Assembly (NCBI GenBank): GCA_041891055.1
Contig: CP169074.1
Span: forward strand, 320,001-384,000
Reading direction: 5' to 3'
Length of the DNA stretch: 64,000 nucleotides
Source of the DNA: Halorutilales archaeon Cl-col2-1
GTDB taxonomy: Archaea; Halobacteriota; Halobacteria; Halobacteriales; Afararchaeaceae
Positions 15,018 to 58,781 of this stretch are shown in pieces; positions within the stretch are counted from its first letter, which is position 1; each line of letters starts with the position of its first letter. Position numbers and translations under genes: made by a program. The notes below the pieces were generated by a model, which ran no database searches, was not told where the DNA came from, and saw nothing but the letters and a program-made list of their open reading frames with translations.

Positions 15018-15468
15018 TTGACATCCTCACCCGCCTGAAGTCGGGTGAATCCCACATTGGGAATTTAAGGTTTCCAACCAACACAACCTTGTCAGGAGTT
15101 TCCCCCATTCACGGTTATATCGGCTGAAGGCTGTGCCAAACAGCCGTTACTCCTATCCTCTCGGACTCGGAGTTATCTCTGAACTTCGTTCAGAGGTTAA
15201 CGAAGCTTTGCTTCGTGATATCTTTCTACCTACCTTCTGTGGGGTTTTCACAACACACTTTTTAATGCATTTTCACAACCCTTCCGTATATTACCTCGTT
15301 ACTTTGGGCGGGTAAACCGCCTACGTAGGTTGATTGACCCATACAAAGATTCGTTGTGGTACTACTAAACTTTTACTGAAATTCCGGTATAGTCACCGAA
15401 ATAGTAAGTTGAGTACTTCGACGGATTCATCCCGCACCTAAAGGTGCGGGTATTCTCCTGTGCTATCT
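15018..15468 (-). mobile_element. Non-autonomous IS200/IS605-family (IS1341/tnpB-derived) element
   Basis: Subterminal hairpins at both ends (CCCGCACCTAAAGGTGCGGG ~15431-15450; CACCCGCCTGAAGTCGGGTG ~15028-15047). Minus-strand right end ...GAGGATGTCAA; left end follows TTAT. Retains tnpB 3' remnants (RKITPSP, DRSNGCLAQP); no full ORF. Confidence 0.8.
15174..15223. repeat. 45-nt twin-hairpin insertion with TATCT direct repeats
   Basis: TATCT (15174-15178, 15219-15223) flank CTCTGAAC-TTC-GTTCAGAG and ACGAAGC-TTT-GCTTCGT. Confidence 0.85.
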
Positions 15469-15485
15469 ATAACTGTATACAGTAC

Positions 15486-15915
15486 GTTGAGGAGAGTAAG
15501 CCCCCTTCTGTTCGTCACGGCATTCAGCTGAGCACCGACTATCGAGGCAGGGCTTACCACAGTCGGCTTGCACCCACGGGGATTCGCCGTTCCACCGTTC
15601 CCTCGCCGTCGTGTCTCGGGCGGTTAACTCGTCGACGTCTGTAAATCTCTGATTTTCAAGCATGCGAATCTTCGGATTCGCGAATGTTGAGTTGCTGTCG
15701 AGTTCGCGTCCCTCATCGATCGGGCGAGGACGTGTCGTTTCTGTTCCAGAGCCGCCGGTCTCCCGACCTCGGCTTGCTTCGTGGTTTTACTTACCACGAG
15801 CCCTCTGAGACTGAGAGTTTCTCAGCGGACGCCGAGCCGTGTGCCCTGCGGTGGGGGGACTTTCCTCGTGTGGTACGTCTTAAAAATGTACCCACGGGAG
15901 CCGTGCTTCCTCTAC
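15486..15915 (-). ncRNA. rnpB: RNase P RNA (archaeal type A-like) with two probable insertions
   Basis: Minus strand contains GAGGAAAGUCCCCCC, GGAACAGAAACG, GGAACGGCGAAUCCCC..GGUGCAAG and AACAGAAGGGGGCUUA; the 5' and 3' ends are complementary (P1). Ends approximate. Confidence 0.93.
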
Positions 15916-16029
15916 GTGTTACAAGGTAGACTCGCTACTCTTAAACGGTTTCGGGTTAGTATCCGAGACACGTGGAAACGTACCAAAAGATTATATTAAA
16001 TGCGGTGTATATTAAATACGTACTAACTC

Positions 16030-16659
16030 ATGGCGGCTCAGAACAGTTTTCTAAGTCACGAGAAGGGGAAGGCTGCCATCGACCTAGCGCGCGAGGCGAT
16101 GGAGTCGTACGTCTTGAACGGGCAGAGGGAACATCCCGGGAGCATGGAAGACGTCTTCTACGAGAGGACAGGTGTTCTCATAAAGCTCAGTTCGACGCGG
16201 GGACGGGGATCGGTGAGGGGTAGCGCGGGATCGTACCACAGGGACAAGCAGTTCTCGGAGGCGATAATCGACGCCGTTATAGAGGCATCCGAGCCGAGTT
16301 CGGGAACCTCAGAGATAGAGGAGTCGGAACTCGGAAGCATAGAGATTACACTGTGTGCGCTCGATTCGATAGACGAGGTCGACAATCCACGCGCCGAAGT
16401 CGAAGTGGGGCGACACGGTCTGATAGTCGAGACCTCTGACGAGTCGGGCTGGATGCTTCCGACGATGCCCGTCGAACACGGCTGGAGCTCCGCTGAGTTC
16501 CTCGATAGGGTATGCTGTAAAGCCGGCTCTTGTAACAACGGTCAGATGGGACGCGGGTCGTGGAAGGAGGACAGCGTCAACGTCTATATCTTCGAGGGAA
16601 GGGTTTTCAGGGAGAGAAACCCGGGAGGTGGGGTCGAAGAAGTCAGCCTACCTGAGTAG
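16030..16659 (+). CDS. AMMECR1-domain protein (TIGR00296-like)
   Basis: GKAAIDLAREAMESY, VEVGRHGLIV, SGWMLPTMPVEHGWSSAEFLDRVCCKAG. Confidence 0.85.
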   Translation: MAAQNSFLSHEKGKAAIDLAREAMESYVLNGQREHPGSMEDVFYERTGVLIKLSSTRGRGSVRGSAGSYHRDKQFSEAIIDAVIEASEPSSGTSEIEESELGSIEITLCALDSIDEVDNPRAEVEVGRHGLIVETSDESGWMLPTMPVEHGWSSAEFLDRVCCKAGSCNNGQMGRGSWKEDSVNVYIFEGRVFRERNPGGGVEEVSLPE

Positions 16660-17820
16660 GCTCGTGTCACCATCACTTTCTCTGACTCTCTCAACTCCTT
16701 CGTTTACTCTACGTCTCGCGTCCTCTATCGAGAAGTCGGCGACTATCTCGCCGTCGTCTATGACGGGTTCCATGAGTCTCTCGGCTTCGTCGGGAACCTC
16801 ACCGTCGCCGCCTGTATACACGACGGTGTCTTCCATCCTGTCGTAGTCACGGTGGATTTCCTTCGCGCCGCTCTTAGTTCCCCTCTTAGCCGCGAACTCG
16901 CAGTCGACCTCTACTATGTCTAGAGAGAAGTCCACGGGGTCGGCGTTGGCTACGTATCCCCCGACACCGAAGCCGTCTACGACGTCTCTGAGTTCGAGTA
17001 TCTCGTCGGCGTCGACACCGCCGCTCACGAAGATACCCACGTCTTCGTGTCCGCGCGCGTCTAACTCCCACCTGACCTCCTCAGCGATCTCTCTCATGTC
17101 GCCGCGTCTGCTCGACGTAGTGTCGAGACGGACGCTGTCTACGTTATCGAGGAGCTCGACGGCTCTCGTCGCCTCTTTCTTCTCGTCCTCGTATGTGTCA
17201 CACAGAAGAACCCGCGGCACCGACTCGTCGAGTGCTTCGTCGTACGCGAGCCAAGCCTCCTCTTGGTCGCCCATCGAGATAACGAATGCGTGGGGCATCG
17301 TACCTCCGGCTTCGACGCCTATCGCCTCTCCTCCTGCGATGTTCGAGATGCCGTCCATACCTCCTATCAAGGCGGATCTCTCTATCATCCCCGCGGTCGC
17401 GGGATGCTGTCTGCGTGTCCCGAAGCTCAGAACTGTCCTGTCTCCCGCGGCGGCTTTAGCTCTCATCGCCTTCGTGGCGACGCCGCTCGCCTTACAGATG
17501 AATCCGAGGAGAGCAGTCTCGTATCTCCCGAAATCGAGGTACTTGCCCTCTATACGCATCACGGGCGAGTTCCTGAAGAGGGTGCCCTCGGGGACTGAGT
17601 AGACGTCGACGGGCTTTCCTTCGAGAAGCTGGGCGACGTCCTTGAGACCCGCGAAGACGTGCCAGTCGTCGGTTTCCTCGCCAACTTCGGCGACGACTTC
17701 GGGGTTTCTGTCGGAGTATTCGAGTACCTCCTCTGTCGTCTCGAAGTAGGCGTCGGTCACCCGCCCGTCGTCTATGTCGTCGGGAGTGAGTATGTCGTAC
17801 TTCCTGTCGGTCTCGTCCAT
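16648..17820 (-). CDS. pncB: Nicotinate phosphoribosyltransferase
   Basis: TDAYF, ETALLG, SFGTRRQHP, GTMPHA, LCDTY, VRLDT, FVSGG, FGVG; start set at MDETDRKY. Confidence 0.9.
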   Translation of the reverse strand: MDETDRKYDILTPDDIDDGRVTDAYFETTEEVLEYSDRNPEVVAEVGEETDDWHVFAGLKDVAQLLEGKPVDVYSVPEGTLFRNSPVMRIEGKYLDFGRYETALLGFICKASGVATKAMRAKAAAGDRTVLSFGTRRQHPATAGMIERSALIGGMDGISNIAGGEAIGVEAGGTMPHAFVISMGDQEEAWLAYDEALDESVPRVLLCDTYEDEKKEATRAVELLDNVDSVRLDTTSSRRGDMREIAEEVRWELDARGHEDVGIFVSGGVDADEILELRDVVDGFGVGGYVANADPVDFSLDIVEVDCEFAAKRGTKSGAKEIHRDYDRMEDTVVYTGGDGEVPDEAERLMEPVIDDGEIVADFSIEDARRRVNEGVERVRESDGDTSLLR

Positions 17821-17868
17821 ACCGAAGTATTCTCGTCGTCTCACCTTATTTACTCGGTCTTTTGTCTC

Positions 17869-18444
17869 TTACTCGTACTCTATCTCGGTCGAGTCGACTA
17901 CCTCACCGAAGAGCCAGTCGGCGTGTTCGAGAGAGTACTCCTTGTCCGACTCGTCGATATAGCCGACTGCGTCCTCGACTAAGACGGGACGGTAGTCACG
18001 CAGACCCGCGCTGCTCGCTGTGTGTAGGACACAGACGTTAGAGAGTGTGCCACAGATCACGAGGTTGTCTATGCCGTGGCTGTCGAGGAAGCCCTCCAAC
18101 TCGGTCTCGTAGAAGGCGTCGTAGGTGTGTTTGACGACTACGTGATCCGACTCGTGTACGTCGATGTCGTCGACTATCTCGGAGTCCCAGGACCCCTCGA
18201 TGACGTGCTCGCCCCATCTCTCGAACTCGTCGTAGTAATGGTTTCCGTCGAACTGTCCCTCGGGATGTACGTCTCTCGTGTAGATTAGCTGGACGCCGTT
18301 GGCGCGCGCCTCCTCGACGACGTCTTGTACGCCGACTATCGCAGTCTCGCTCGGCTCGGCGTAGAGACTGCCGTCGGGATGACAGAAGGCATTCTGCATG
18401 TCGACGACCACGACGGCGGTCGAGTCGGGGTTTAGCTCTACCAT
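17869..18444 (-). CDS. Isochorismatase/nicotinamidase-family cysteine hydrolase
   Basis: VVVDMQNAFC, TRDVH, WGEH, KHTYDAF, CGTLSNVCVLHTA; directly upstream of pncB, so probably pncA. Confidence 0.85.
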   Translation of the reverse strand: MVELNPDSTAVVVVDMQNAFCHPDGSLYAEPSETAIVGVQDVVEEARANGVQLIYTRDVHPEGQFDGNHYYDEFERWGEHVIEGSWDSEIVDDIDVHESDHVVVKHTYDAFYETELEGFLDSHGIDNLVICGTLSNVCVLHTASSAGLRDYRPVLVEDAVGYIDESDKEYSLEHADWLFGEVVDSTEIEYE

Positions 18445-18504
18445 GTTGGGCTCTACACAGTCATAAAAAATCAGACTTTTGACCACGCGTTCCGTCTTTG
18501 GCGT

Positions 18505-19257
18505 ATGTTAAGCTTCGTTGGTCTAGGACTCTACGACGAGCGCGACATAACCCTCAAGGGGAGGGACGCGATTGCCGACGCCGACTCCGTCTACGCCGAG
18601 TTCTACACGAGCGTACTCTCGGGGACGTCACTCGAAGAGCTAGAGGAGTTCCACAGCGTCGAGATAAACAGGCTGTCAAGGGAGGAAGTCGAGTCAGACC
18701 CAGAGTTCTTAGACGAGGCGCGTGAGAATAACGTCGTCTTCCTCTCGGGAGGCGACGCGATGGTGAGTACGACACACGCCGACCTGCGTCTCCGTGCCCA
18801 CGAGAAGGGGATAGAGACACGTGTGATACACGCGCCGAGCATACAGACCGCCGTCTCGGGTGTCACCGGACTCCAGAACTACAGGTTCGGACGTTCGACG
18901 ACTCTTCCGTTCGAACACGACGGCTGGAGACCTGACTCGCCCTACGAGGCGATACTCGAGAACCTCGAAAGAGATCTCCATACACTCGTCTTCCTCGACA
19001 TAGAGGTCGAGGGCGAGGAAGGGAGATACATGACTGCCGACGAAGGCGCGAGGATACTCGGCGAGACCGGCGACTCCGGTGAGATAGACACTGTTGTCGG
19101 CATAGCGCGCGCGGGGAGCGAGTCGCCCGAGGTCTTCGCGGGAACCCCCGACGAGGTCTCGAACCACGACTTCGGACCTCCTCTCCATATACTCGTCGTG
19201 CCCGCGTCTCTACACCACATAGAGGAGGAGTCGCTCCGAGAGATAGCGAACCTGTGA
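18505..19257 (+). CDS. dph5: Diphthine synthase
   Basis: MLSFVGLGLYDERDITLKG, YAEFYTS, GDAMVSTTHADL, GLQNYRFG, LHTLVFLDI, DFGPPLH. Confidence 0.95.
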   Translation: MLSFVGLGLYDERDITLKGRDAIADADSVYAEFYTSVLSGTSLEELEEFHSVEINRLSREEVESDPEFLDEARENNVVFLSGGDAMVSTTHADLRLRAHEKGIETRVIHAPSIQTAVSGVTGLQNYRFGRSTTLPFEHDGWRPDSPYEAILENLERDLHTLVFLDIEVEGEEGRYMTADEGARILGETGDSGEIDTVVGIARAGSESPEVFAGTPDEVSNHDFGPPLHILVVPASLHHIEEESLREIANL

Positions 19258-19319
19258 TACTACTTCTCTGATACGTCCACGCCGACCTCCTAAGTCTAAG
19301 TCTACGGCTACGGATTAAG

Positions 19320-19790
19320 CTAAGCCTCGAACTCCGCGCCACAGTCGGGACATCTCATCCCCGGCTCTCCGTCGATAACTGTGAACTCCATGTAGTCGGC
19401 TTCACCACAGTCGCGGCAAGGTGCCGCAATACGGATATCAGTCGACTCCTGAGGAGTGCCGAGTGCGAGGGCTCGGACGGTCTCGTCCGACTCGTTCCGT
19501 CCCTGTAGATACTCGCCCGGGTCGAATCTAACCATCTGTCCCTGAGTCACAGTGACAGTCTCAGTTTCGGCGTCTAACTCGGGCTTTGTCTCGAAGGTAG
19601 CCTCGCCTTCGAGAACGAAGAAGGTCTCCTCCTGGTCGAGATGGCTGTGTACAGCATCGGCGAAGTTCTCTCCCGGCTCAAGCACGTAGTAGTTCATCGA
19701 GAAGTCCTGAGCACCCAGCGGCTCCGAGACGCTCTGTCTGTTCCGGGGGTCTTCCTCCGGAGTCATACTGTTAAGGTCGATCTTCTGCAT
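19320..19790 (-). CDS. Cupin-domain protein with C-terminal zinc ribbon
   Basis: HSHLDQEETFFVLEG cupin motif; CRDC and CPDCG at the C-terminus. Confidence 0.85.
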   Translation of the reverse strand: MQKIDLNSMTPEEDPRNRQSVSEPLGAQDFSMNYYVLEPGENFADAVHSHLDQEETFFVLEGEATFETKPELDAETETVTVTQGQMVRFDPGEYLQGRNESDETVRALALGTPQESTDIRIAAPCRDCGEADYMEFTVIDGEPGMRCPDCGAEFEA

Positions 19791-19846
19791 ACAGCCACAG
19801 ACGTGTCCTCAGTGACGAAAAAGATACTGGTGCTTTTAAATCAAAT

Positions 19847-21181
19847 TCAGTCTATCTCGCTCTGGACGTCGAGTTGGTTCATGCTGTCGACTTCTTCACT
19901 GATTCCCTCTACCATAGCCTCCTGTTCCTCGTTCGAGGCGGCGATGTCCTCAGCCTTGTCGGAGACCCTCTCAGCTTTCTCGGATGCCTCGTCTACCATG
20001 CTCGCTATCTCCTCGGAGCTAGATGCCTGCTGGTTCGTGGCACTCGAAACTTCCTCGACGCTCTGGGAGACCTCCTCGACCATCTCGGCGATCTCCTTGA
20101 AGTTCTCGCCCGCGGTCTCGACCTTGTCGGCACCCTCGTCGATAAGCTGGTTGTTGTCTTCGAGGCTCTCGACGGTCTCCATCGCGTTGTCCTGTATCGT
20201 CTCGACGATCTCCTCTATCTCGCTCGCGTGGCTCTGTGACTCCTCTGCTAGCTGTTTTACCTCGTCTGCGACGACAGCGAATCCTTCGCCTGCCTCTCCT
20301 GCGCGCGCCGCCTCTATGTTGGCGTTGAGTGCGAGGAGGTTAGTCTGGTCTGCTATGTCGTTTATGACCTCGACTATCTCGTTTATCTCCTCGACGCTCT
20401 TCCTGAGGTCTTTGACGTCCTCCGAGACCTCGTGAGACGACTCCTCTATCCTCTCCATCATCTCGACTGCCTCATCGGCTGACTCCTCTCCCTCCGCAGC
20501 TTTGTCCCTCGCGGTTTCGCTTCTCTGGCTGACCTCGTCGGTGCTAGAGGCGATCTCCTCGACGGTCGCACTCAGATTCGAGACCTCGCTCGATATCTGT
20601 TCCATTGACTCCGACTGTTCCTCGGTGAGATGGCTGATCTCCTGTGAGTTCTGAGCCACGTGCTGGGAGACTTCCTTGAGGTCGTCGACCGAGTCCTTGA
20701 CGTTGCCCACAGTCTCCTTCTCGTCTGTGAGGTCTCTGAAGGTTTCGGCGATACCTATAATGTCGCCCTCCGAATCACGAACCGGGCGGCAGATGAGTTC
20801 GGTGGGTATTACCTCGCCGTCGTAGCTTTCCTTGTTTACTTCGACACGGATCTCGTCCTTGCCGTGGTCGACTATCTGGTTGAGAGTGCAGTTATCCGTG
20901 CCACATACGTCGGGGTTCGAGAACTGGTCGAAGCATTTGACGCCTTCGACGCCTTCGGCTTCCACATCCCCCATCTCCTTCATCTGCTGGTTTTCGAGTA
21001 TGACATTGAAGTCGGTGTCGAGAATCCTCATCGCAGCCCCCGTCGACTCCATCACTGTCCTTATGTTGTTGCCGAGCTCTTCCTTGAACTCGTCCTCAGT
21101 CAGGCTCTTACCCCCTGATATCTCTTGAGACAGGTCGGCGTCGGAGCTTCCGTGGGTCGGGAGACTCTTATCAATAGACAT
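19847..21181 (-). CDS. Soluble methyl-accepting chemotaxis protein with N-terminal PAS domain
   Basis: [34 protein letters not shown] signalling hairpin; no TM segment; PAS-like N-terminus with three Cys. Confidence 0.9.
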   Translation of the reverse strand: MSIDKSLPTHGSSDADLSQEISGGKSLTEDEFKEELGNNIRTVMESTGAAMRILDTDFNVILENQQMKEMGDVEAEGVEGVKCFDQFSNPDVCGTDNCTLNQIVDHGKDEIRVEVNKESYDGEVIPTELICRPVRDSEGDIIGIAETFRDLTDEKETVGNVKDSVDDLKEVSQHVAQNSQEISHLTEEQSESMEQISSEVSNLSATVEEIASSTDEVSQRSETARDKAAEGEESADEAVEMMERIEESSHEVSEDVKDLRKSVEEINEIVEVINDIADQTNLLALNANIEAARAGEAGEGFAVVADEVKQLAEESQSHASEIEEIVETIQDNAMETVESLEDNNQLIDEGADKVETAGENFKEIAEMVEEVSQSVEEVSSATNQQASSSEEIASMVDEASEKAERVSDKAEDIAASNEEQEAMVEGISEEVDSMNQLDVQSEID

Positions 21182-21309
21182 ATGCCTATACTGGCTTCAT
21201 CACATGGCTATATATACTTGTATATGTAGGAATTTTGCAAGATTCTCACACAGTAAACCCCACTAAAAATCCGGATATACAGAAGAGTCAGACCGCCTTC
21301 ATCTCAGCC

Positions 21310-40305: not shown

Positions 40306-41289
40306 GTGGAATCGTTAGTCGAACTCGTACTCACGAGGGTTGTTCCACGTGTTCTCAAGATAGCCCTTCTGATAGGCGTAGGAGTGTCTCTCGCTAACAT
40401 AGCCGTTGAGTTCGGTGCTGTAAAACGCATAGCATCGGTGGCGCGTCCCATAACTAAGGCGGCGAACCTCCCCGAGGAAGTCGGGACTGCTATACTCGCC
40501 ACCGCCGCCTCTACGACTGCTGGCTACGGAATGCTCGCCGAGTACCGCGAGTCGGGGAAGATAGACGACACGGAGACGCTGATCGCTGTCACTATAAACA
40601 CCTTCTTCGGCTTCGCACAGCATATACTCACTTTCTACGCTCCCGTTCTGATACCTATACTCGGTCTCAAGGTGGGACTGATGTACGTCGGAGCGCGTGC
40701 GGCGATCAGCCTCTCGATTACATTTGTCGGAATCGCAGCGGGAGCACTACTCCTCTCCGATGTATCTCGGGAGAACGAGACAGAGGTCACTGGTTCGAAA
40801 GTAGATACCGACGCTGACACCGATGTCGACGATGACACGAGGACACCCAAAGAAAAAACACGCGAAGCCCTCGGATCGAGTACCTCGACACTCAGGAGTA
40901 TACTCCCTCGTCTCGCGGTGATCTATACCGTAGTCGTCGTCTTGACAGAGAACTACGACGTCAGGTCTCTCACCTCTTTCGGACAGCCTATCGCCGAGGT
41001 CACGGGTCTGCCGAGCGAGAGTATTCCTGTTATAGCCGTCTATGCTATCGATACCACGAGCGGGACTCTCACACTCGCGCCGATGCTCAATACCGCCTTC
41101 ACGTCTAGGCAGGCGGTCGCGACTATGCTGATAGGCGGTATCGTCTCTTTTGCAGTCACGACATTCAGACGGTCGATCCCTTTCCAGTACGGTATGTGGG
41201 GAGCGAAGTTCGGCTCGAAGGTCATCATACTCAACACGACTCTCAAGGTAATCTTTATATCGTTGACAGTCGCTCTGCTTCTCTACTGA
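40306..41289 (+). CDS. Nucleoside-recognition (Gate) domain membrane protein
   Basis: Polytopic, two halves joined by an acidic linker; GTG start at 40306 inferred. Confidence 0.7.
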   Translation: MESLVELVLTRVVPRVLKIALLIGVGVSLANIAVEFGAVKRIASVARPITKAANLPEEVGTAILATAASTTAGYGMLAEYRESGKIDDTETLIAVTINTFFGFAQHILTFYAPVLIPILGLKVGLMYVGARAAISLSITFVGIAAGALLLSDVSRENETEVTGSKVDTDADTDVDDDTRTPKEKTREALGSSTSTLRSILPRLAVIYTVVVVLTENYDVRSLTSFGQPIAEVTGLPSESIPVIAVYAIDTTSGTLTLAPMLNTAFTSRQAVATMLIGGIVSFAVTTFRRSIPFQYGMWGAKFGSKVIILNTTLKVIFISLTVALLLY

Positions 41290-42532: not shown

Positions 42533-42604
42533 GGGCTCGTAGATCAGGGGTAGATCACTCCCTTGGCATGGGAGAGGCCCCGGGTTCAAATCCCGGCGAG
42601 TCCA
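42533..42604 (+). tRNA. tRNA-Ala(GGC)
   Basis: Acceptor GGGCTCG/CGAGTCC with G3:U70, anticodon arm CTCCC-TTGGCAT-GGGAG, T-arm GGTTCAAATCC. Confidence 0.97.
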
Positions 42605-42781
42605 TACTGTTTGTTCGGTCATAAGGAGTGAGGTAAAAACACCAGACAGCGTAGAGTTCGTCGCTAAAATCCGCATTTCTGAGAGGAGAGTTCAATTACA
42701 TCGTAATTGCGGGTCTACGCTGTCTTGCGATGACGAGGAGGGAATATTCTTACCAGTAGTATTTCAAGGAGGTGAGTCGTC

Positions 42782-43070
42782 TTGAGCGAGGACTCACAGA
42801 CCCAGAAAATCTACTGCGAAGACTGCAGCCTACATATCGACGCCGAGATCTGGGAGACCCACCTCAGAAACAGACACCCCAGAGAATACGATCCCGCCAC
42901 GTTCGGAAATCTCTAATTTCCGAGCCATCAAAATCATAGATTTTGAGACGTTCGACCTCAACGACTACCTAGACGTCGACGATAGTAGCGGAGGCGGCAA
43001 AGAAAGTGTCGACAAGTCACGCGTCCTCGAACCTTTGAGACGGCGGTCGAGTACTACCACGACCAACTCG
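42782..43070 (+). pseudogene. Small C2H2-zinc-finger ORF truncated by a twin-hairpin insertion
   Basis: AGGAGGTGA ribosome-binding site then TTG. YCEDCSLHIDAEIWETHLRNRH. The current stop (42914-42916) lies inside the insertion; removing it restores ...PATFDLNDYLDVDD. Confidence 0.6.
42899..42954. repeat. 49-nt twin-hairpin insertion with ACGTTCG direct repeats
   Basis: ACGTTCG at 42899-42905 and 42948-42954 flank CGGAAATC-TCT-AATTTCCG and TCAAAATC-ATA-GATTTTGA, with a GAGCCA-type linker. Confidence 0.88.
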
Positions 43071-48601: not shown

Positions 48602-49259
48602 GGCGTTGGTGAATCGCCATACGAAGCTTGATTTACTGTTTTACGGCATGTTTGATGTTGTAGACAGAGCAGATCAGGATGAGTTCACGAAACTCTCTGT
48701 ACCAGGCACGCTCACGCACGGCTTCACGAAGCACAGCTTCGTTAGCTGAAAATCTTCGATTTTAAGCTGTGCCGAGCGTGCGCTTGATGTTTGAGAAGAC
48801 GGTTTCAGACATGGATCTTTGACCATAGAGAGACCCATCGATTCTGGTGTCGCAAATCTGAGATTTGCGTACATCCAAAAATCAGAGATTTTTGAATACG
48901 TTATGCGCCTGATCGATGGGTCGGAACTCACGGTGTTTGGTGAGTGGTGCTTATCCGTAGACAGTGGAGAGAAACGATGGCGTAATCCGCGAAGCCGCCA
49001 CCCTGCTCTGGGGTGGCGGCTTCGCTCCGACCACCGACATCATGAACTCCGTTCATGAGCCTCAAAGCTCCGCTTTGAGACAGCGTTTTTAGCTAATGTC
49101 ACGACTCTATCAGTGATGTGTTGTGAATCTTTGATTCACATACGTTGGAACGCAAGCGTTCCAAAACGGGAGATTTTGGATATGTCATCGAAAACTTCCC
49201 GCTTCATCTCCTTTGCATTAGTGGCTTAATCCAACGCAGTCTAGTGATTCACCAAAACC
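48602..49259 (-). mobile_element. Degenerate IS5-family (ISH1-like) element with central deletion and four hairpin insertions
   Basis: IRs GGCGTTGGTGAATC and GATTCACCAAAACC. After removing the insertions the minus strand reads SKISRF-TDRVVTLAKNAV-GGRSEAATPEQGGGFADYAIVSLHCLRI [deletion] PLTKHREFRPIDQAHNA-RIDGSLYGQRSMSETVFSNIKRTLGTA-VRERAWYREFRELILICSVYNIKHAVKQ*. Confidence 0.88.
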
Positions 49260-51223: not shown

Positions 51224-51369
51224 GTCTCTGGTGGCACTCTGCGACCATTTGCCGTTGTTTTTCCAGTTCGAAGAACGATGTTTTTTCTGGAAGAGTTTCC
51301 GTTGCTCCCGTTCAACTTGCAGTAGCGCGGAGTCCCCCTTGAGGGAGAAGGCTTAGCGCCTGCTATCAG

Positions 51370-52011: not shown

Positions 52012-52120
52012 ACTTACTTAGTATGACGCCGTGGGAGTCGTTATAGATTGCGTTATACAGACGCAAGGCGGAGTCAAAGCACAATTCTTATACTTGTACC
52101 GCGATACTGTTAGAATGCGC

Positions 52121-52192
<72 letters not shown>

Positions 52193-52195
<3 letters not shown>

Positions 52196-52388
52196 AATTT
52201 CTCTGAAATTTGCACGGAACAGAATTGTAGATTCTGTGACGTTCGCTAATCTCTGATTAGCGTGCAAGCAAATCTTCGATTTGCGAACGTATGCAAATCA
52301 AAGATTTGCGAGCCTGCGAGATCAGAGATCTCGGAACGTTCGGAAATCTTCGATTTCCGAGCCAGCGAGAACGGAGTTCTCGGAACGG
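52193..52388. repeat. Array of eight triloop hairpins, 23-25 nt period
   Basis: Loop centres at ~52203, 52228, 52253, 52276, 52301, 52325, 52350 and 52374; stems differ and linkers alternate. Confidence 0.92.
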
Positions 52389-52484
52389 GAGAAAAACTCG
52401 TTCCCTCCTTGTGGGATTTTTCTATTTCTTCAGAGTCTTCCACTTTCGACGTATTTATCCAGGAACTGTGGTTACTTCCAATAG

Positions 52485-54425
52485 ATGTCTGACTCTGACG
52501 AGCATGGAGGATTCGAAAGTATACGTGAGGAGGTCAAGGGCAATCCTATCGTGAGATTGCTTGGCTACACCCGTCCCTACAAACTACGTCTGATCACTGG
52601 GGTATTGATGTCGTTCTGTACCCGTCTCGCACGCCTCGCACCCCCCGTAATCATAGCCACAGCGATAGATAGGATCATCTTCCAGCGTGGCGAACCGGGT
52701 TTACTTGCTCGGATAGGTTTAGTTCCCTCTGACACCGTCACTAATCTAAATGCCCGGGCTGAGCTGCTGGAAACCTTGGTAATCATAGCTGTTGTTGCCT
52801 ATCTCGTCCGGTCAGTGACACGGTTTCTTTCGCGGTATCTCATCCAGTCAGCCGCACAGAAGATACAACGCGACCTACGGAACGACACGTATGACCATCT
52901 CCAGCATCTTTCGATGAGCTTCTTCACTAACCATCAGACAGGCGGTATGATGTCGATTCTTAACAGTGACATCAACCGACTCGAACAGTTCCTCAACACC
53001 GAGTTCCGCCAGTTCCTCCGTGTGATAGCTATGGTCGGCGGGATTAGCCTAATCCTGTGGTACTATTCGCCTACTCTAGCCCTAATTGCTCTCGCACCTG
53101 TTCCTGTAGTAGGAGTTGCGAGCGGTGGATTCCTCCGTTGGATCGAGCCTCGGTACCAGTCCATCCGAGAGACTGTCGCACGTTTGAACACCCGTTTGGA
53201 GAATAACCTGGGCGGCGTTGCAGTCGTGAAAGCCTTCAACCGTTATGATTTCGAACGTGCCCGTGTAGAGAACCAGAGCCAGAGATACCACGACGAGAAG
53301 GTCGGTGCACTACGTATACGACGTGCTTTCTTCGCCGGTCTACGTTTATTAACGGGAGTGGTATTTGTCGTGGTGCTATACGTAGCTGGCAAGGACTTTA
53401 TAGCTACGCCTACGGGCAAAGAGCCGATAATCTCTGCAGGTGCCTTTGCGGCTTTCTTCATGCTGTTGAGACGTCTCTACTCGCCAATGCGACGAGTGGG
53501 GAAATCAGCTAATAAATATCAGCTTGCGAAATCGAGTGCAGAGCGAGTGTTCGGACTACTTGCAACTCAACCCAGTATGACTAGCCCGTCCGATCCGTAT
53601 CAACCACAGGAGATCGATGGCGACGTCGTGTTTGATTCTGTGTCTTTCGGGTATAACGACAGCAAAAACGAGAAAGTCATCGAGGATCTATCCTTAGAAG
53701 TGCCTGCAGGCACCACCATCGGTCTCGTAGGGGAAAGCGGAGCCGGAAAATCGACCCTGCTTAAACTCATACCGAGGCTCTATGACGTGGATTCCGGATC
53801 GGTCAAAGTTGATGGAACTGATGTACGTGAGTACGGTGTAGAGGCACTACGTGATAAGATAGCTGTAGTCGAACAGAATCCATATCTGTTCTCCGGAACG
53901 GTGGCAGAAAACATAGCCTATGGCAACAGAGAAATCCTCCGAGCCGAGAGTAGCCAGACTGCCACGGACAAAGAGGACGAAGATGAGGTTCGAAAACGGA
54001 TAACCGACGCAGCCCAGGCTGCTGAAGCCCACGGTTTCATACGCGATCTTCCGGACGGATATGACACACAGATAGGCGAACGAGGGGTTAAGCTCTCGGG
54101 AGGACAGCGTCAGCGGGTCGCAATCGCTAGAGCACTACTCAACGACCCCGATATAATAATATTCGACGAGGCGACGAGTGATGTCGATACTGAGACGGAG
54201 GATCTCATACAGCAGAGCCTCGAACGTCTCATTCACGACAGAACTGCTTTCATCATTGCTCACCGTCTTGCTACAACCAAGAATGCCGACCGGATAATTG
54301 TATTAGAGGACGGCGAAATAGTTGAATCGGGCACGCATAAAGAACTCGTACAGACCGAAGGAGTCTACGCATCGTTGTGGAACGCCCAAGCGAATATGAA
54401 TGAACCCATCGGATCGATAGGATAG
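52485..54425 (+). CDS. ABC exporter, fused permease/ATPase (MsbA-like)
   Basis: TM domain plus [37 protein letters not shown]. Confidence 0.93.
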   Translation: MSDSDEHGGFESIREEVKGNPIVRLLGYTRPYKLRLITGVLMSFCTRLARLAPPVIIATAIDRIIFQRGEPGLLARIGLVPSDTVTNLNARAELLETLVIIAVVAYLVRSVTRFLSRYLIQSAAQKIQRDLRNDTYDHLQHLSMSFFTNHQTGGMMSILNSDINRLEQFLNTEFRQFLRVIAMVGGISLILWYYSPTLALIALAPVPVVGVASGGFLRWIEPRYQSIRETVARLNTRLENNLGGVAVVKAFNRYDFERARVENQSQRYHDEKVGALRIRRAFFAGLRLLTGVVFVVVLYVAGKDFIATPTGKEPIISAGAFAAFFMLLRRLYSPMRRVGKSANKYQLAKSSAERVFGLLATQPSMTSPSDPYQPQEIDGDVVFDSVSFGYNDSKNEKVIEDLSLEVPAGTTIGLVGESGAGKSTLLKLIPRLYDVDSGSVKVDGTDVREYGVEALRDKIAVVEQNPYLFSGTVAENIAYGNREILRAESSQTATDKEDEDEVRKRITDAAQAAEAHGFIRDLPDGYDTQIGERGVKLSGGQRQRVAIARALLNDPDIIIFDEATSDVDTETEDLIQQSLERLIHDRTAFIIAHRLATTKNADRIIVLEDGEIVESGTHKELVQTEGVYASLWNAQANMNEPIGSIG

Positions 54426-54578
54426 CAGGATGTGAGAGGGAGCCGGAGTTTTGATGTGCGAGCTTACACACACGGGTCGAGTCACTGTTACTTGTCAGGA
54501 CATTTGTTTACTCTTCCACCATCTTCAGAAAACAGATGGGGAAGACTTACCCGTCTGCAGTTATTATGTTAATCTGTA

Positions 54579-54779
54579 ATGACGAACGGTAAGGTTGATT
54601 TCTTCAACGACACAGGCGGTTACGGTTTCATAGAGACTGACGCTACTGACGAAGGCGAGGACGTTTTCTTCCACATGGAGGACGTCGGCGGTGACGATCT
54701 CACAGAAGGCACAGAGATAGAGTTCGATATCGAAGAGGCTCCGAAAGGACCTCGTGCGACGAACGTCGTCCGCGTATAA
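54579..54779 (+). CDS. Cold-shock protein
   Basis: GKVDFFNDTGGYGFI, DVFFH, KGPRATNV. Confidence 0.95.
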   Translation: MTNGKVDFFNDTGGYGFIETDATDEGEDVFFHMEDVGGDDLTEGTEIEFDIEEAPKGPRATNVVRV

Positions 54780-54896
54780 GCGAGAGATCGTTACACGCCG
54801 GTACGATAGATACTACTTTCCTTTATTTGGCTAAATAACTTAGAGAGAGTCTTAATTATCTTTCCGGAGGATCGGAGTCCTGTGTATCAGTTCTGA

Positions 54897-55187
54897 TTAC
54901 TCGATTTCCAACTCGCCGCTGCTGCCGTCTCCTCCCCCACTGGCGTTCTCTTCCCATTCGAGTTCGAACTCGATACTTAACTCACCGGGTTGATCCGTAG
55001 CACCCTCGCGTTCGGCTTTGACCTCGAACGTCGGGCGGGCTGGAGGCTCCATAGTCACAGACTCGGAGCCGGATTTTAGCGTGATCGCGCTCCCTTGTTC
55101 GAGCTTATCAGCCACACTGCGAAGGTAGGCTGCGATATCCTTTCGACTCTGGTCGCCCTCTGATTTGAACAGAACTTCTTCAGGCAT
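54897..55187 (-). CDS. Amphi-Trp domain protein
   Basis: MPEEVLFKSE..SRKDIAAYLRSVADKL..ELSIEFELEW; start at 55187. Confidence 0.85.
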   Translation of the reverse strand: MPEEVLFKSEGDQSRKDIAAYLRSVADKLEQGSAITLKSGSESVTMEPPARPTFEVKAEREGATDQPGELSIEFELEWEENASGGGDGSSGELEIE

Positions 55188-55245
55188 GTAGAAGCCTACG
55201 TTACCCACACCGATAAGTTCATCCCACCTATCTACAACTCCTCCA

Positions 55246-55413
55246 TCAACTATTGGCTTCGATAGCCCGTCCTTGTTTCTTAGCCTTCTCCTTAGCCCGT
55301 TCTCTTTCCTCGTCGTCGCCTGGGGGATAGATATACATCTTCCCCGAGTCACCCCATCGATAGTATCCTTTCTTTTCGCCATCCCGTGTTGTATAGCCTT
55401 GTTGCAACGGCAT
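55246..55413 (-). CDS. Small basic hypothetical protein (55 aa)
   Basis: MPLQQGYTTRDGEKKGYYRWGDSGKMYIYPPGDDEERERAKEKAKKQGRAIEANS*; starts 1 nt after the upstream stop. Confidence 0.6.
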   Translation of the reverse strand: MPLQQGYTTRDGEKKGYYRWGDSGKMYIYPPGDDEERERAKEKAKKQGRAIEANS

Positions 55414-55414
55414 A

Positions 55415-55771
55415 TTAAGAGACTTCCAGGTCGTAGTACAGAATATTTTCCGTGCTTTCATCGCTCTTTTTTATTCTTACCTCGTCAGGGGATACCCCAT
55501 AGAACTCAGATACCGTCTCTTTGATCTGTCTCATGATACCGTGTCTTTTGTCGTCAGGTAAAACATCGTTTAACGAGCTAGCTAGATAGCCTTCAGGCTC
55601 TATACGGATGTAGATATCCGACTCTCTGTCCTTTACCAGGGCAACCTCTATCGACTTCCCGTTTCTGTCGAAGCTCGCTATCTGTCTTTCGGTATGTTCG
55701 GGCTCCACCTCTTCCTTGTACTGCTCCCTCTCGTAGGCTTCTATTATATCTGATATTTTCTGTGTGTCCAT
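55415..55771 (-). CDS. Hypothetical protein (118 aa)
   Basis: Acidic ORF with TATA-like CTTAAG upstream; no motif recognised. Confidence 0.65.
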   Translation of the reverse strand: MDTQKISDIIEAYEREQYKEEVEPEHTERQIASFDRNGKSIEVALVKDRESDIYIRIEPEGYLASSLNDVLPDDKRHGIMRQIKETVSEFYGVSPDEVRIKKSDESTENILYYDLEVS

Positions 55772-55921
55772 GGTATGTATTAGTTTGTCTGCCGAACTTA
55801 AGTCAACTGGCTATATACTTGAGACTCTGTTACCGCCCCCGTCAGAAAACGTAGTCCCTCAAGGATCTTGTTCGCGCGTATATACGCCAGACGTATTAAA
55901 CTCGGGGGCTAAGAACTACTA

Positions 55922-56260
55922 ATGACAGACTCAGACTCGGACTCAAAGAAGAAAGCCGATCTGAAAACCGAACCGGGCTCCGACCCTAACTCGGGAGCCG
56001 ACCTTACCGAGAAGACGAACAGGTACAGACGTCTCCTGTCACGTGCTCTCGACTCGGTCGAGGTCGTAGAGGAGTCCGACGAAGCCGACGAGTTCCTGGA
56101 GATGGCGGAGTCTTACTACGACGACGGCGAACACTTCCTCGAAAACGACGACGAGGTCAACGCTCTCGCCGCATTCTCGTACGGACACGCGTGGCTCGAC
56201 GCGGGTATGAGGTCGGGGGTCTTCGACGCAGACGACAACAGGGAACTGTTCACAGTATGA
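55922..56260 (+). CDS. DUF357-domain protein
   Basis: EFLEMAESYYDDGEHF..VNALAAFSYGHAWLDAG. Confidence 0.88.
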   Translation: MTDSDSDSKKKADLKTEPGSDPNSGADLTEKTNRYRRLLSRALDSVEVVEESDEADEFLEMAESYYDDGEHFLENDDEVNALAAFSYGHAWLDAGMRSGVFDADDNRELFTV

Positions 56261-56910
56261 CGGGAGCGGTCAGCCTCTTCTCAGGAGGAAAGGACTCGAC
56301 CTACGCCCTCTACAAGGCACAGGAGGAGTACGACGTCGATACTCTCGTCTCGGTACACGCAGAGGAGGCGTCGAAGATGTACCACGTCCCTGCGATAGAA
56401 CTCACGTCTCTTGCCGCTGACGCAATGAAGGTCGACAGGGATCTCGTGACTGTCGAGACACGAGACGACGAGATACCCCCTCTGAGATGTGAGCTAGAAG
56501 ACCTCTCGCCCGATGCGGTCGTCGTGGGTGCGGTTGAGAGCGAGTACCAGAGGTCACGGATACAGAATGTCTGTGACGAGATAGGAGCCGAGCTCGTCGC
56601 CCCGCTCTGGCACTGTGACACCTCCGAGACTATGAGGGAGATAGTCGAGGAGTTCGAGGTCATGGTGATAGGAGTAGCCGCACATGGACTCGACGAGACT
56701 TGGCTCGGACGCGTCCTCGACTCAGAAGACATCGACGAGCTCGAACGTCTCAACGACGAGTACGGCGTCCATGTTATGGGCGAGGGCGGCGAGTTCGAGA
56801 CGATGGTTCTCGGAGGACCACACATGAGCTCGGAGATAGAAGTCAAGTACGGGAAGGAATGGGACGGAATGAGGGGGGAGCTACATATCGACGACGCGCG
56901 TCTGAGGTAG
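56257..56910 (+). CDS. dph6: Diphthine--ammonia ligase (Dph6-like PP-loop)
   Basis: SLFSGGKDS, GAVESEYQ, APLW, HVMGEGGEFETMV; ATGA overlap with DUF357. Confidence 0.88.
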   Translation: MTGAVSLFSGGKDSTYALYKAQEEYDVDTLVSVHAEEASKMYHVPAIELTSLAADAMKVDRDLVTVETRDDEIPPLRCELEDLSPDAVVVGAVESEYQRSRIQNVCDEIGAELVAPLWHCDTSETMREIVEEFEVMVIGVAAHGLDETWLGRVLDSEDIDELERLNDEYGVHVMGEGGEFETMVLGGPHMSSEIEVKYGKEWDGMRGELHIDDARLR

Positions 56911-57002
56911 GATAGACTTCTTCCGTTTCCAACACATTGGAGTCTGTCTATCTGTGTTATCGACGACAGAGTTATAAGCCGTCCTTCTGATACTCAAGCG
57001 AG

Positions 57003-58712
57003 ATGGATCTTCTCGTCTGGTATGTTCTGGTTTTTGTCGTCTCTGGAGTTGTCTGTTTAGGCACCGTACCGCGTGCGAGAACCGTACAGCACCGTGGCAC
57101 GCGCGAGGGACTCGTAGTATTCCTCATCTCGGTCGCCGTCTGGTCGTGGGGATACGTCGGATACCTACTCGCGCCGACGGCACGTTTGAGGGTCACCTTC
57201 TACATACTCGGATTTGTCTTCGCCTTCGTCGCTGTCGGGTCTTGGGTCTACTTCTGTGCCGCCTACACGGGACGGTCACCGCGCCAGATGCCCTACAGGA
57301 ACGCCGTTCTCGGAGTCTTCGCCGTCTTCGTCGTTCTCAAGATCACGAATCCTCTCCACGGTCTCTACTTCACCACCGAGTGGACCACCGAGCCGTTTCC
57401 CCATCTCGCCGTCCACCACAACCTACTCTACTGGGTACTACTCGGTCTCTCGTATGCCGCCATCTCGGTGGGATTCTTCATGCTCTTCGAGCGGTTCTAC
57501 CATACGGGGACAGACAGCCGTCCACTCGTCTTACTCGCCGGGGTCACGGCTGTCCCCGCAGTGTTCACGATACTCAGCGGCGAGCTCGGAGGACTCCTGC
57601 CGTTGATGTACGAGCCCCCGGGTGTCGCAGTCTTTGCTGTTGGGACACTCTTCGTCTACTTCGAGAGGTTCGAAGCCGTCCGTCTCACAGCCGGAACTGA
57701 CGACCCCGCAGTATTCGTCGACCCAAGCGGCTGTCTGCGTGAGTATAACCGAGCCGCAGAAGAGATATTTCCGAGCCTCAGTGGCTCGATAGGCAAGCCG
57801 TTGGAGTCGTCGGTTCCGTCAGTCGCCGAGGCTCTCTCGGGGTCTGAGTCGGGAGTAGGCTCGGAAGTAGTCGAGGTCTCACGCGGGTTCAACGGCGACG
57901 GTGAGGAAGCCACCAAGAGGTTCTACGAGGTATCGGCTGCACCTTTCGTGTCGGGCGAGGTTGTGACGGGGAAGATTATCACCGCGAGAGATGTGACCGA
58001 CAGAGAGACATACCGTCGGAGGCTTGAGGAGAAGACCGAACAGCTTGAGGCACTCAACCGGGTGGTTCGCCACGACATACGTAACGACATGACCGTGGTT
58101 CTCGGATGGGCTGAGACACTCGAAGACCACGTTGACGACGAAGGGCGCGACGCTCTTGAACACGTCTTAGAGAAGTCGCGCCACGTCGTCGGTATCACGA
58201 GGGTAGCGCGCGACTTCATCGAATCCCTCGGCGAAGGAGAGAGTACGGATCTGAAACGTGTCGACTTACGCCACCACCTCAAAGCCGAGATGGACGCAGT
58301 CCGAGAGTCGTATCCCGACGCCGAGTTCGAAGTCTCGGGCGAGATACCCGATGTCTCTGTCGAAGCGAATGAGATGGTCTCTTCGGTCTTCAGGAATATA
58401 CTCGGTAATGCCATACAGCACAGCGACGAGGAGACTCCCGAGGTCATAGTATCGTGTGAAAACCGCCCCGAGACGGTCTTGATCCGGTTCGCGGACAACG
58501 GTCCTGGTATCCCCGACGAGAAGAAAGACGAGATTTTCGGTAAGGGTGAGAAGGGTCTCGAAAGCGGAGGATCGGGAATCGGTCTCTATCTCGTCAATCT
58601 CCTCGTTGAGTCGTACGGCGGAGAGGTCTGGATAGAAGAAAACGATCCGAAGGGCACCGTCTTTAACGTCGAACTCTCTAAGTCCGACAGTGATCCTCAG
58701 AAGACTTACTGA
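57003..58712 (+). CDS. Histidine kinase with N-terminal 7TM domain
   Basis: TNPLHGLYF 7TM region, VRHDIRNDM, NILGNAIQH, DNGPG, GSGIGLYLV. Confidence 0.9.
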   Translation: MDLLVWYVLVFVVSGVVCLGTVPRARTVQHRGTREGLVVFLISVAVWSWGYVGYLLAPTARLRVTFYILGFVFAFVAVGSWVYFCAAYTGRSPRQMPYRNAVLGVFAVFVVLKITNPLHGLYFTTEWTTEPFPHLAVHHNLLYWVLLGLSYAAISVGFFMLFERFYHTGTDSRPLVLLAGVTAVPAVFTILSGELGGLLPLMYEPPGVAVFAVGTLFVYFERFEAVRLTAGTDDPAVFVDPSGCLREYNRAAEEIFPSLSGSIGKPLESSVPSVAEALSGSESGVGSEVVEVSRGFNGDGEEATKRFYEVSAAPFVSGEVVTGKIITARDVTDRETYRRRLEEKTEQLEALNRVVRHDIRNDMTVVLGWAETLEDHVDDEGRDALEHVLEKSRHVVGITRVARDFIESLGEGESTDLKRVDLRHHLKAEMDAVRESYPDAEFEVSGEIPDVSVEANEMVSSVFRNILGNAIQHSDEETPEVIVSCENRPETVLIRFADNGPGIPDEKKDEIFGKGEKGLESGGSGIGLYLVNLLVESYGGEVWIEENDPKGTVFNVELSKSDSDPQKTY

Positions 58713-58742
58713 CATCCTCACGCGCCTAAAGGTATGTGACTT
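58710..58742 (-). mobile_element. Degenerate IS200/IS605 right-end remnant
   Basis: TGACATCCTCACGCGCCTAAAGGTATGTGA closely resembles TGACATCCTCACCCGCCTGAAGTCGGGTGA at 15019-15048. Confidence 0.65.
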
Positions 58743-58748
58743 AGATCC

Positions 58749-58781
58749 AACTCCTCACTAATCAGAGATTAGCGAACTCCT
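58749..58781. repeat. 26-nt single-hairpin insertion with AACTCCT direct repeats
   Basis: AACTCCT at 58749-58755 and 58775-58781 flank CTAATC-AGA-GATTAG. Confidence 0.8.

Follow-up and report, generated by a model that had tools for sequence, protein, structure and literature searches.

A family of very small mobile repeats, each a pair of tagged hairpins (here called a unit or doublet), is dispersed through the genome of Halorutilales archaeon Cl-col2-1. The family was recognized in the window, the whole stretch of 64,000 nucleotides that was analysed (contig CP169074.1, positions 320,001 to 384,000; C1:320001-384000 of the source genome, G000, which comprises 2.06 Mb in four contigs at 55% G+C). 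At 43-51 bp, the element appears to be a heterodimer in which two tagged mini-palindromes are joined head to head. As judged from comparisons of aligned DNA, the unit is mobile, whole dimers being present or absent at otherwise continuous sites, and the family has been active on the time scale of species divergence. It constitutes an archaeal triloop form of tagged repetitive extragenic palindrome (REP) dimers which, as far as could be found, has not been described previously. The reading considered probable, with a good share of doubt, is that the units are non-autonomous elements of the REP kind, mobilized in trans and recognized as folded single strands. A preliminary description of the window had likewise proposed a system that is mobile at the level of single-stranded DNA (ssDNA) and akin to REPs and REPINs (REP doublets forming hairpins); a real mobile family of this type is indeed present, whereas the HUH-type, single-strand step of the proposal is plausible but conflicts in part with the flanks of the unit, which bear one and the same dinucleotide on either side.

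Filled and empty sites

Empty sites, implied by the earlier proposal of mobility, were encountered in paralogous places, in the congener G001 and in metagenome contigs. When the flanks of 187 hairpin clusters were compared with one another, unit-less paralogous places with the same flanks were recovered, and eleven such pairs were aligned. Comparison of 734 kb of G001 with G000 placed hairpins in 23 indels, at least 14 of which amount to one to several whole units, present in one genome or the other.

A graded series is provided by an insertion sequence of the DDE type (PF01609). Its intact copy (C1:304610-305461; 283 aa, DDE_Tnp_1, E 1.6e-21) holds no doublet, a second copy (C2:71400) holds three, and a dead copy in the window (48608..49253, minus strand; positions without a contig prefix are those of the window), which is bounded by GGTGAATC terminal repeats and has suffered a 466-nt internal deletion, holds four. 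At site 1 lies doublet 4 (48721..48765, plus strand, 45 nt), missing in the intact copy, and metagenome contigs skip 48722-48769. Doublet 5 at site 2 (48848..48898, 51 nt) is on the minus strand, where it follows ACG and ends in ACA; here the metagenome joint is 48847-48901. Doublet 6 at site 3 (49040..49082, plus strand, 43 nt) has ACA on both sides, is missing at C1:304687 and C2:72331, and is skipped by a metagenome joint at 49036-49080, as is doublet 7 at site 4 (49119..49166, minus strand, 48 nt) by one at 49116-49167. Metagenome contigs from three studies skip all four units, and their joints and breaks coincide with unit boundaries, although these contigs may represent other copies of the insertion sequence. 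As for the earlier suggestion that the hairpins may silence mobile elements, three to four copies of the insertion sequence have identical unit insertions, and it must therefore have kept multiplying after the units entered.

The other loci of the window present the same picture. Doublet 1 (15174..15218, plus strand, 45 nt; hairpins CTCTGAAC-TTC and ACGAAGC-TTT, with a TATCT direct repeat on either side) is carried by a transposase-less remnant of the IS200/IS605 type (15008..15483, minus strand, 476 nt), which has GC-rich tetraloop hairpins at both ends and resembles a palindrome-associated transposable element (PATE); 13 nt stand in its place in G001. The same doublet occurs at C1:464703, 3' of a full-length tnpB, with an empty counterpart at C2:36559. 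Doublet 2 (15644..15689, minus strand, 46 nt; GCGAATC-CGAA and TGAAAATC-AGA-type hairpins on the RNA strand) lies within the gene for the archaeal RNase P RNA (15485..15916, minus strand; Rfam RF00373, 171.5 bits, E 3.9e-49). Its 46 nt are missing in the G001 ortholog, the flanks of which are ~95% identical. On the cmscan alignment, it forms an apical insert in a long variable helix (model positions ~115-176) that is probably P12, and it uses a pre-existing TGTA as part of a stem. Doublet 3 (42902..42950, plus strand, 49 nt) is a canonical unit of type I (defined below) with a mutated closing pair in hairpin A. Situated ~290 nt downstream of a tRNA gene (42533..42604, plus strand; RF00005), it splits a small zinc-finger-like open reading frame (ORF), and exactly 49 nt are missing both in the paralog at C1:1671774 and in the G001 counterpart of that paralog. 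One metagenome contig has an extra unit after 42954; a metagenome joint at 42781-42943 skips 161 nt and represents a larger deletion variant rather than a clean empty site. Finally, a tandem array of four units, each ending in ACG (52191-52241, 52242-52289, 52290-52338 and 52339-52387; overall 52191..52387, plus strand), starts inside or at the 3' end of a tRNA-Glu gene (52121..52195, plus strand; Rfam, ARAGORN). Only its first unit is common to G001, where another unit precedes it and different units follow, and metagenome contigs diverge exactly after 52338, a unit border.

Architecture of the unit and covariation of its stems

Rereading of the window together with a permissive hairpin scan recovered all 23 hairpins that had been reported at six loci: two each at 15174, 15634 and 42899, eight each at 48721-49168 and 52193-52387, and one at 58756. 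Loops of 3 nt were reproduced for 21 of them, including two with a mutated closing pair, the remaining two loops being TTCG and CAAG; 20 of these 21 read R-N-A on one strand, with TGA at 48859 as the exception. The 43-51-nt doublets, the short flanking direct repeats (e.g., TATCT at 15174 and ACA at 49040) and the restoration of reading frames on removal of hairpins (e.g., a ~95-aa frame on subtraction of the 49 nt at 42902) were likewise borne out. The claim of a separate class of ~26-nt singlets stood for a single copy in the window, the imperfect hairpin C(A)CTAATC-AGA-GATTAGCG (58756..58774, plus strand), which has AACTCCT as a direct repeat on either side and adjoins a degenerate IS605-type end; most others are doublets, and the partner of an apparent singlet elsewhere is mostly a hairpin with a 4-5 nt loop or a mismatch. 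Folding as ssDNA gave two hairpins in five of six tested units (z -3.8 to -6.1 against 200 shuffles); for the RNase P copy, z was -2.6 against as many shuffles.

With ^ denoting a unit boundary, the main type of unit reads CG^T-TCGNNAATC-loop-GATTNNCGA-GCC(N)-hairpin B-(G)A-CG, and the layout of type I is NCG^T-TCG NN AATC-loop-GATT NN CGA-GCC(N)-hairpin B-(G/A)A-CG^. Orienting hairpin pairs on their linker identified 62 type I units in G000, 53 of them unique, and 19 in 734 kb of G001. Among the 53, the inner arms are of 15 distinct kinds for hairpin A and 25 for hairpin B, and the loop is exactly 3 nt long in 44 and 43 cases, respectively. At its base, hairpin A has the pairs T-A/C-G/G-C (TCG...CGA), and GCC, GCCA or GCCC follows it. 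Loop A reads T-N-Y in 31 units, R-N-A in 13 and otherwise in 9, whereas loop B reads R-N-A in 33, T-N-Y in 10 and otherwise in 10; G001 agrees in this polarity (T-N-Y in 13/19 A loops, R-N-A in 14/19 B loops). Given the opposite loop polarity of A and B, the unit is a pseudo-dyad. The monomer, read on the 5'-CGTY strand, consists of CGTY, a 7-9 bp stem enclosing a triloop (mostly T-N-Y), and GCC(A); since the two monomers share the GCC tail region, their tags face outward. The tag was present on 128 of 400 candidate hairpins as compared with 15% of random positions, and tag plus tail on 62 of the 400 as compared with 0.8%. In other subtypes, the linker is TACAT, TACGTA, TGCACA or the like, and the end is ACA.

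Genome-wide, perfect hairpins (stem of at least 7, loop of 3) were counted over the 2.06 Mb and in ten block shuffles that preserved dinucleotides. There were 514, compared with 182-229 in the shuffles, of which 347 are closed by C-G (56-66 in the shuffles), and 285 of these 347 have R-N-A or T-N-Y loops (14-22 in the shuffles). The loop bias postulated from the window hence extends to the genome, and it is missing with other closing pairs (40/167, where chance gives 25%). Neighboring hairpins have a peak of centre-to-centre spacing at 23-26 nt and occur in arrays of up to nine. Because the scan itself demands a stem, a stem-free test was made on all 194 occurrences of AATC-NNN-GATT, the counts for which are inflated by paralogous copies. 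Beyond the motif, Watson-Crick pairing continues over four more positions, in 172, 171, 166 and 153 of these sites in turn, with pair 5 being AT in 104, GC in 37, TA in 19 and CG in 12, and pair 6 being CG in 68, TA in 45, GC in 30 and AT in 28; 166 of the 194 loops read R-N-A or T-N-Y. Moreover, of the 20 distinct 7-nt arms that were listed, 14 are seen three or more times, in every case with a perfect partner.

The view that structure rather than sequence is inherited was not upheld. Sequence is inherited along with structure: the CGTY tag is conserved, as are the GCC(A) tail, the AATC/GATT core and the outer TCG/CGA pairs, and this extends to other Halobacteriales. Free variation is confined to positions 5-6 in the stem of hairpin A and to most of hairpin B.

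Insertion sites

The cut lies directly after CG, often within GACG, at ~15 of ~19 reconstructed empty sites (a hand tally), and inserted dimers end again in (R)ACG. New dimers therefore pile up beside old ones, forming arrays. The hairpins had been said to be concentrated in dead mobile DNA and at stable-RNA loci. In agreement with this, 42 of 202 hairpin loci lie within 150 nt of an IS605-type end motif (expected, 4.3%) and seven abut a tRNA (expected, 0.44%), with the reservation that about half of the 202 loci are single hairpins, part of which are background; however, intact protein genes also host units. In-frame copies were found in an intact M24 peptidase of 407 aa (C1:1621352-1621404), where a 48-nt unit that is missing in the G001 ortholog adds 16 residues within the M24 domain, in a ThiN protein (C1:1919106-1919148) and in a thioredoxin-domain protein (C1:1374317-1374356). 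Two of these three units encode a similar peptide, ..HQSxIDxPVNQRLTD...

Host-selected function, as terminators, RNA stabilizers or protein-binding sites, could be considered for such motifs, as many copies lie just 3' of genes or tRNAs where they would be transcribed, and bacterial REPs are assigned such roles in the available portion of one account (PMC3733652). This explanation is nevertheless scarcely credible for the family as a whole: the two congeners differ in their copies at the same loci, copies break a reading frame and a transposase gene, and both orientations are used (18 forward and 19 reverse for the exact type I pattern).

Within IS200/IS605-type (tnpB) elements, the units occupy the loops or arms of the palindromic ends. 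In one tnpB family, a unit follows GAGCG in the apical loop of the 3' structure, with the empty state preserved at C2:39649; another sits within the 3' arm of a left-end hairpin. A six-hairpin array inside an end palindrome was observed at C1:979446-979590, C1:533469-533608 and C2:51551-51690, and a fourth copy of that end (C2:69963-70006) has only the two outer hairpins. One tnpB family has a conserved C-NNN-G hairpin pair with CA on both sides (e.g., C1:1018735-1018823, C1:1161072-1161160 and C1:1825309-1825397) in a region expected to encode the guide-RNA scaffold; the pair may go back to an old insertion of a unit or else belong to the RNA itself.

This association raises the question of whether the units are terminal-only remnants of IS200/IS605-type elements, a left-end and a right-end hairpin fused in the manner of the 52-bp PATEs of Haloquadratum. 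The class definition fits, inasmuch as the available text on PATEs speaks of elements without terminal inverted repeats but with near-terminal palindromes, too short for a transposase and including seemingly mobile 52-bp forms (PMC3119063). Against such an origin, the ends of the resident elements at 29 tnpB loci are GC-rich tetraloop hairpins or long imperfect palindromes that differ from the units, doublets are inserted in them whole, with empty paralogs, and no element was found with hairpin A at one end and B at the other. A terminal-only origin was rejected on the strength of these 29 loci and is held to be very improbable.

Candidate enzymes

No mobilizing enzyme is encoded in the window, as had been stated. 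The transposases found in G000 comprise one IS200-type Y1 TnpA, 33 tnpB matches and nine DDE_Tnp_1 matches. The TnpA gene (C1:979011-979418) is intact, has the HUH motif, is paired with tnpB and is the sole PF01797 match in the genome; six hairpins lie directly 3' of it, nested in the end palindrome of its element. A search of G001 contigs C1-C10 by tblastn with this TnpA gave no copy. G001 has four Y1 matches and one resolvase, and no IS630 (DDE_3), rve (IS30/IS3) or resolvase gene was found in G000; on these grounds an IS607-type serine transposase and the IS630 and IS30/IS3 types were rejected as movers. A Y1 HUH transposase is the most likely class of mover, although this particular step is considered less likely than not.

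Among 301 sampled Halobacteria, Y1 genes occur in 204 and the loose motif RAATCNNNGATTY in 299, with 152 copies in G000, 140 in G001 and, by eye, ~15 in a typical genome; at such frequencies the co-occurrence of enzyme and motif proved uninformative. A replicon-like contig (C4, 3311 bp) has as its only long ORF a frame of 409 aa that matches PF23343, a family of rolling-circle Rep proteins, weakly and below the cut-off (E 0.0032), possibly a second HUH enzyme; no hairpin of the family lies on this contig.

Mode of mobilization

An enzyme supplied in trans would recognize the unit as folded ssDNA. Such recognition would explain how positions 5-6 of the stem, and hairpin B, undergo compensated change without loss of base pairing, of the C-G closing pair or of the loop class. 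According to the available part of one source (PMC13037366), the DNA mini-hairpins formed by C(GNA)G triloops are a classical example of very high stability.

A number of observations weigh against this reading. The repeats adjoin TnpA on its downstream side only; as they are not on both sides, the arrangement is not that of a REPtron. The native ends of the resident elements are unlike the unit triloops, which leaves the resident TnpA without an evident reason to bind the units. The presence of Y1 genes bears no visible relation to the count of the loose motif when the tables are compared by eye, and one genome without any Y1 match (G190) still has related doublets. Loop polarity is kept in only ~60% of hairpins. 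The orientation of units relative to the replichores defined by GC skew was 20:12 and 6:16; this bias is suggestive but unconvincing once arrays are counted once, because units within arrays and transposons are not independent. The flanks are also at odds with IS200/IS605 chemistry. The same dinucleotide stands on both sides of the unit, CG/CG in ~38 of ~50 independent type I units, with mismatches mostly being single transitions within CG (the tallies were read by hand and are approximate). Of the eight type I units with a left flank other than CG, four have the same dinucleotide on the right (TA/TA in two, CT/CT and CA/CA in one each), and CA/CA is seen once more at site 3 of the dead insertion sequence. 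Since flanks match even when they are not CG, they look like a 2-bp target duplication; matching flanks are the expectation of a 2-bp staggered cut or of a shared crossover dinucleotide, and not of IS200/IS605 or RAYT (REP-associated tyrosine transposase) chemistry. Furthermore, flanking repeats of 7 to 12 nt at some insertions fit homology-driven copying better than a transposase.

The matching flanks are accommodated more readily if the unit is a miniature inverted-repeat element that travels in double-stranded form, carried by a transposase of the DDE type or another that makes staggered cuts, with a 2-bp target duplication that usually falls on the palindromic CG; the outward CGTY/RACG tags would then be short terminal inverted repeats, and the hairpins incidental or regulatory. 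The dyad symmetry of the unit and the nine DDE_Tnp_1 matches in G000 are in keeping with this, and the terminal repeat of the DDE insertion sequence (48608-48618 and 49243-49253) shares the 7-mer GTGAATC with common stems, but this match is probably due to chance (estimated p ~0.3). The absence of DDE_3, rve and resolvase genes from G000 speaks against it, and no insertion sequence with CGTTCG-type ends was seen in a survey of ends that was not exhaustive. Double-strand transfer also gives no reason for the triloop class, the C-G closing pair or the compensated changes in the stems, and a recent insertion (event 13) is bordered by CA to its left and by CG to its right, with a single CA in the empty allele. 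On balance, a double-strand mover is regarded as unlikely.

Exchange of hairpins at fixed sites brings a further explanation into play. In the paralogous tnpB elements at C1:130002 and C1:1930876, hairpin A is TCGCAAATC in one and TCAGAAATC in the other, a swap of four coordinated changes with hairpin B and the flanks remaining the same, and at a tnpB 3' site three different A stems stand beside an identical B. Both loops of doublet 7 are inverted relative to its paralog on C2 (TTT/CAAG versus GAA/CTTG). Such stem swaps and loop inversions point to replacement of hairpins by conversion, to re-insertion at a hot spot, or to template switching within a palindrome. It could be argued from this that there is no dedicated transposition at all, and that template switching, microhomology-driven copying and gene conversion carry material from arrays into sites that resemble unit junctions. 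Besides the swaps and flips, such copying would account for the long flanking repeats (7 nt, ACGTTCG, at 42902; 12 nt, GACGGAGCAAAT, at the tRNA-Glu of G001; and GGTCC at a tRNA-Ala), for the reuse of TGTA by the RNase P insert and for the appearance of new units at the borders of old ones (event 19). However, many clean insertions share CG alone, or nothing, with their target, the length of the unit is fixed, and the same unit types, tag and tail recur at unrelated sites and in distant Halobacteriales, all of which makes copying improbable as the sole process. Under mobilization in trans of folded strands, the perfect palindromes and the loop flips would probably be aided by intra-hairpin template switching or gene conversion between copies.

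Relation to known repeats

The closest published description of the archaeal units is that of the CGTC-tagged REP superfamily of bacteria, which includes dRS3 of Neisseria and RPE-4 and RPE-6 of Rickettsia (Di Nocera, De Gregorio and Rocco, 2013; PMC3733652). In the available part of that article, the superfamily spans five bacterial phyla, and Archaea appear only in the reference list. Its members have an unpaired terminal tag (CGTC or TGTC/CCTC), a stem of 8-9 bp and a CCA-like unpaired tail, and they mostly form head-to-head dimers, often heterodimers; the archaeal units correspondingly have CGT-T before hairpin A and G-ACG, which is CGTC on the opposite strand, after hairpin B (~38 of ~50 units), stems of 7-9 bp and a GCC(A) tail, and are always composed of A plus B with the tags outside and with different stems. 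The same text further describes partners that are a few bp apart in some families (1-2 bp in Wolbachia), dimers inside other palindromes, in-frame intragenic copies (RPE-4/-6) and 'no dedicated transposase', all features in which the two resemble each other. In contrast to the bacterial repeats, with their loops of 4-5 nt and A-T pairs at stem positions 1-2, the archaeal units have a 3-nt loop and lack those pairs; they also differ in having an archaeal host, in that one monomer has CGTT rather than CGTC, and in that the two stems of a dimer are unrelated. The likeness drawn here is one of features as described in that text.

The REPIN/RAYT systems, reportedly described by Bertels and Rainey in 2011, share with the archaeal family an inverted pair of tagged hairpins as the mobile unit, hundreds of copies, a transposase that is single or of low copy number, and lineage-specific expansion. 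They are set apart by the RAYT (class 2 TnpA-REP) gene flanked by repeats, in place of which G000 has only its IS200-type PF01797 match, and by the GTAG tag, which is CGTY in the archaeon. With a spacer of only 2-7 nt, the two archaeal hairpins cannot pair together, unlike those of a REPIN. In the available portion of a survey of 172 archaeal genomes, only IS200-type Y1 proteins of subclass 1.1 were reported and no RAYTs (Quentin et al., 2018; PMC6006769).

Small repeats of Haloquadratum walsbyi, with which comparison had been advised, behave alike but are not the same thing by their published description. As given in the available part of that description, SMR-A is ~110 bp long, with prominent inverted terminal repeats and a highly conserved sequence, while PATEs are derivatives of IS605 ends, with 52-bp forms that seem to be mobile, and the mobilization of the small repeats is called enigmatic (Dyall-Smith et al., 2011; PMC3119063). 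Judged by description only, both resemble the present units in being free of a transposase, in lacking a long target duplication and in inserting into near-terminal palindromes of IS605-type elements or PATEs, and SMR-A differs in length, being ~110 bp as opposed to 43-51 bp. PATEs differ in that their ends are homologous to those of a resident IS200/IS605 transposon, which is not so for the units at the 29 tnpB loci. PATEs also make no target duplication; in the units, the flanking dinucleotide is repeated (non-CG left flanks matched on the right in 4/8 type I units, plus site 3), which may reflect a duplication. A miniature inverted-repeat transposable element of a DDE transposon would be expected to have matching terminal inverted repeats; a 7-mer resemblance was all that emerged from the non-exhaustive survey of insertion-sequence ends.

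In the IS608 paradigm of the IS200/IS605 family, hairpins lie near both ends of the element, the insertion point is 3' of a short sequence of which the right end bears a second copy, insertions can be in tandem, and the logic is that of single strands. The archaeal units follow this paradigm in their end hairpins, insertion pattern and tandem insertion, and depart from it in the opposite loop polarity of the two hairpins and in a flanking dinucleotide that behaves like a duplication. With cleavage sites 1-4 nt from the hairpins, there is also no room for the known IS608 guide sequences. The small dispersed repeats of cyanobacteria, attributed to Elhai and colleagues in 2008, are said to be mobile hairpins of 21-27 nt, found nested within each other and within genes for structured RNAs; they differ in sequence and in the domain of their host.

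Papers searched by 9-mers of the stems gave chance matches only, and the literature searched, from which most subscription journals fell outside, contained no description of this family and none of REPs linked to Halobacteria.

Distribution

The type I A-hairpin in its exact form, with both tag and tail, has 37 copies in G000 and 36 in G001, and a sample of 149 other Halobacteria contained none. In a public collection of one genome per species, it was present in 23 stretches of eight records, namely, Halorutilus salinus, Halocatena pleomorpha and six metagenome-assembled genomes (MAGs) classed as Halobacteriales or 'Euryarchaeota'. These share the GCC(A) linker and the GACG end, and in one MAG a unit directly abuts the 3' end of a tRNA-Ser. 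In MAG Ods04, a type I unit lies beside an apparent second, partial tRNA-Ser 3' end, ~95 nt from a complete tRNA-Ser (~300-350 and 424-512 of the stretch). Related doublets with other tags are present in G190 and G207. The plasmid collection held no match to the tRNA-flank array, the exact type I pattern was not found in viral contigs, and the paper on Halorutilus salinus makes no mention of repeats or transposons. The archaeal RNase P RNA of G000 and its relatives among the Halobacteriales place it in the Halobacteria; it is distinct from H. salinus, the sole match being one mobile tnpB locus at 93%.

Some further differences between genomes were observed in the window. A gene island with an ABC transporter of 646 aa (52400-55414) is not in the syntenic G001 contig C16, nor is the segment 56814-58818, which comprises a 7TM histidine kinase (569 aa) followed by the degenerate IS605-type end; in metagenome contigs, 101 other letters replace the latter segment. 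At 40815, a contig of a related strain from metagenome run X2 has a 24-nt insertion of a GACAC-type repeat in a coding region, unrelated to the hairpins.

Significance

REP/REPIN-type repeats and RAYT enzymes are, to our knowledge, regarded as bacterial. Here, a REP-like family of ~270 hairpins with clean filled and empty alleles resides in a streamlined 2-Mb haloarchaeon, and its copies in RNase P RNA and, in frame, in housekeeping proteins recall the palindromic elements of Rickettsia. For annotation, it matters that units split genes, inflate tRNA-adjacent arrays and break assemblies.

As a speculation that goes further and is thought unlikely, Halobacteria may harbor a REP-like replicator free of RAYTs, in which some other activity, or off-target action of the ordinary IS200-type TnpA, would recognize any CGTY-tagged pair of perfect C-(RNA)-G hairpins and insert it at CG with a 2-nt stagger, the palindromes being re-perfected by snap-back or template-switch copying. 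What replicates would then be a code of structure plus tag rather than a sequence family; the copying would account for the loop flips and the compensated stem swaps at fixed sites, and the replicator would be a source of new peptide segments in proteins and of extensions in RNase P RNA. Whatever its mover, the family offers a compact system, with units of 48 bp and few candidate enzymes, for asking what moves the CGTC repeats of bacteria and the 'enigmatic' small repeats of Haloquadratum.

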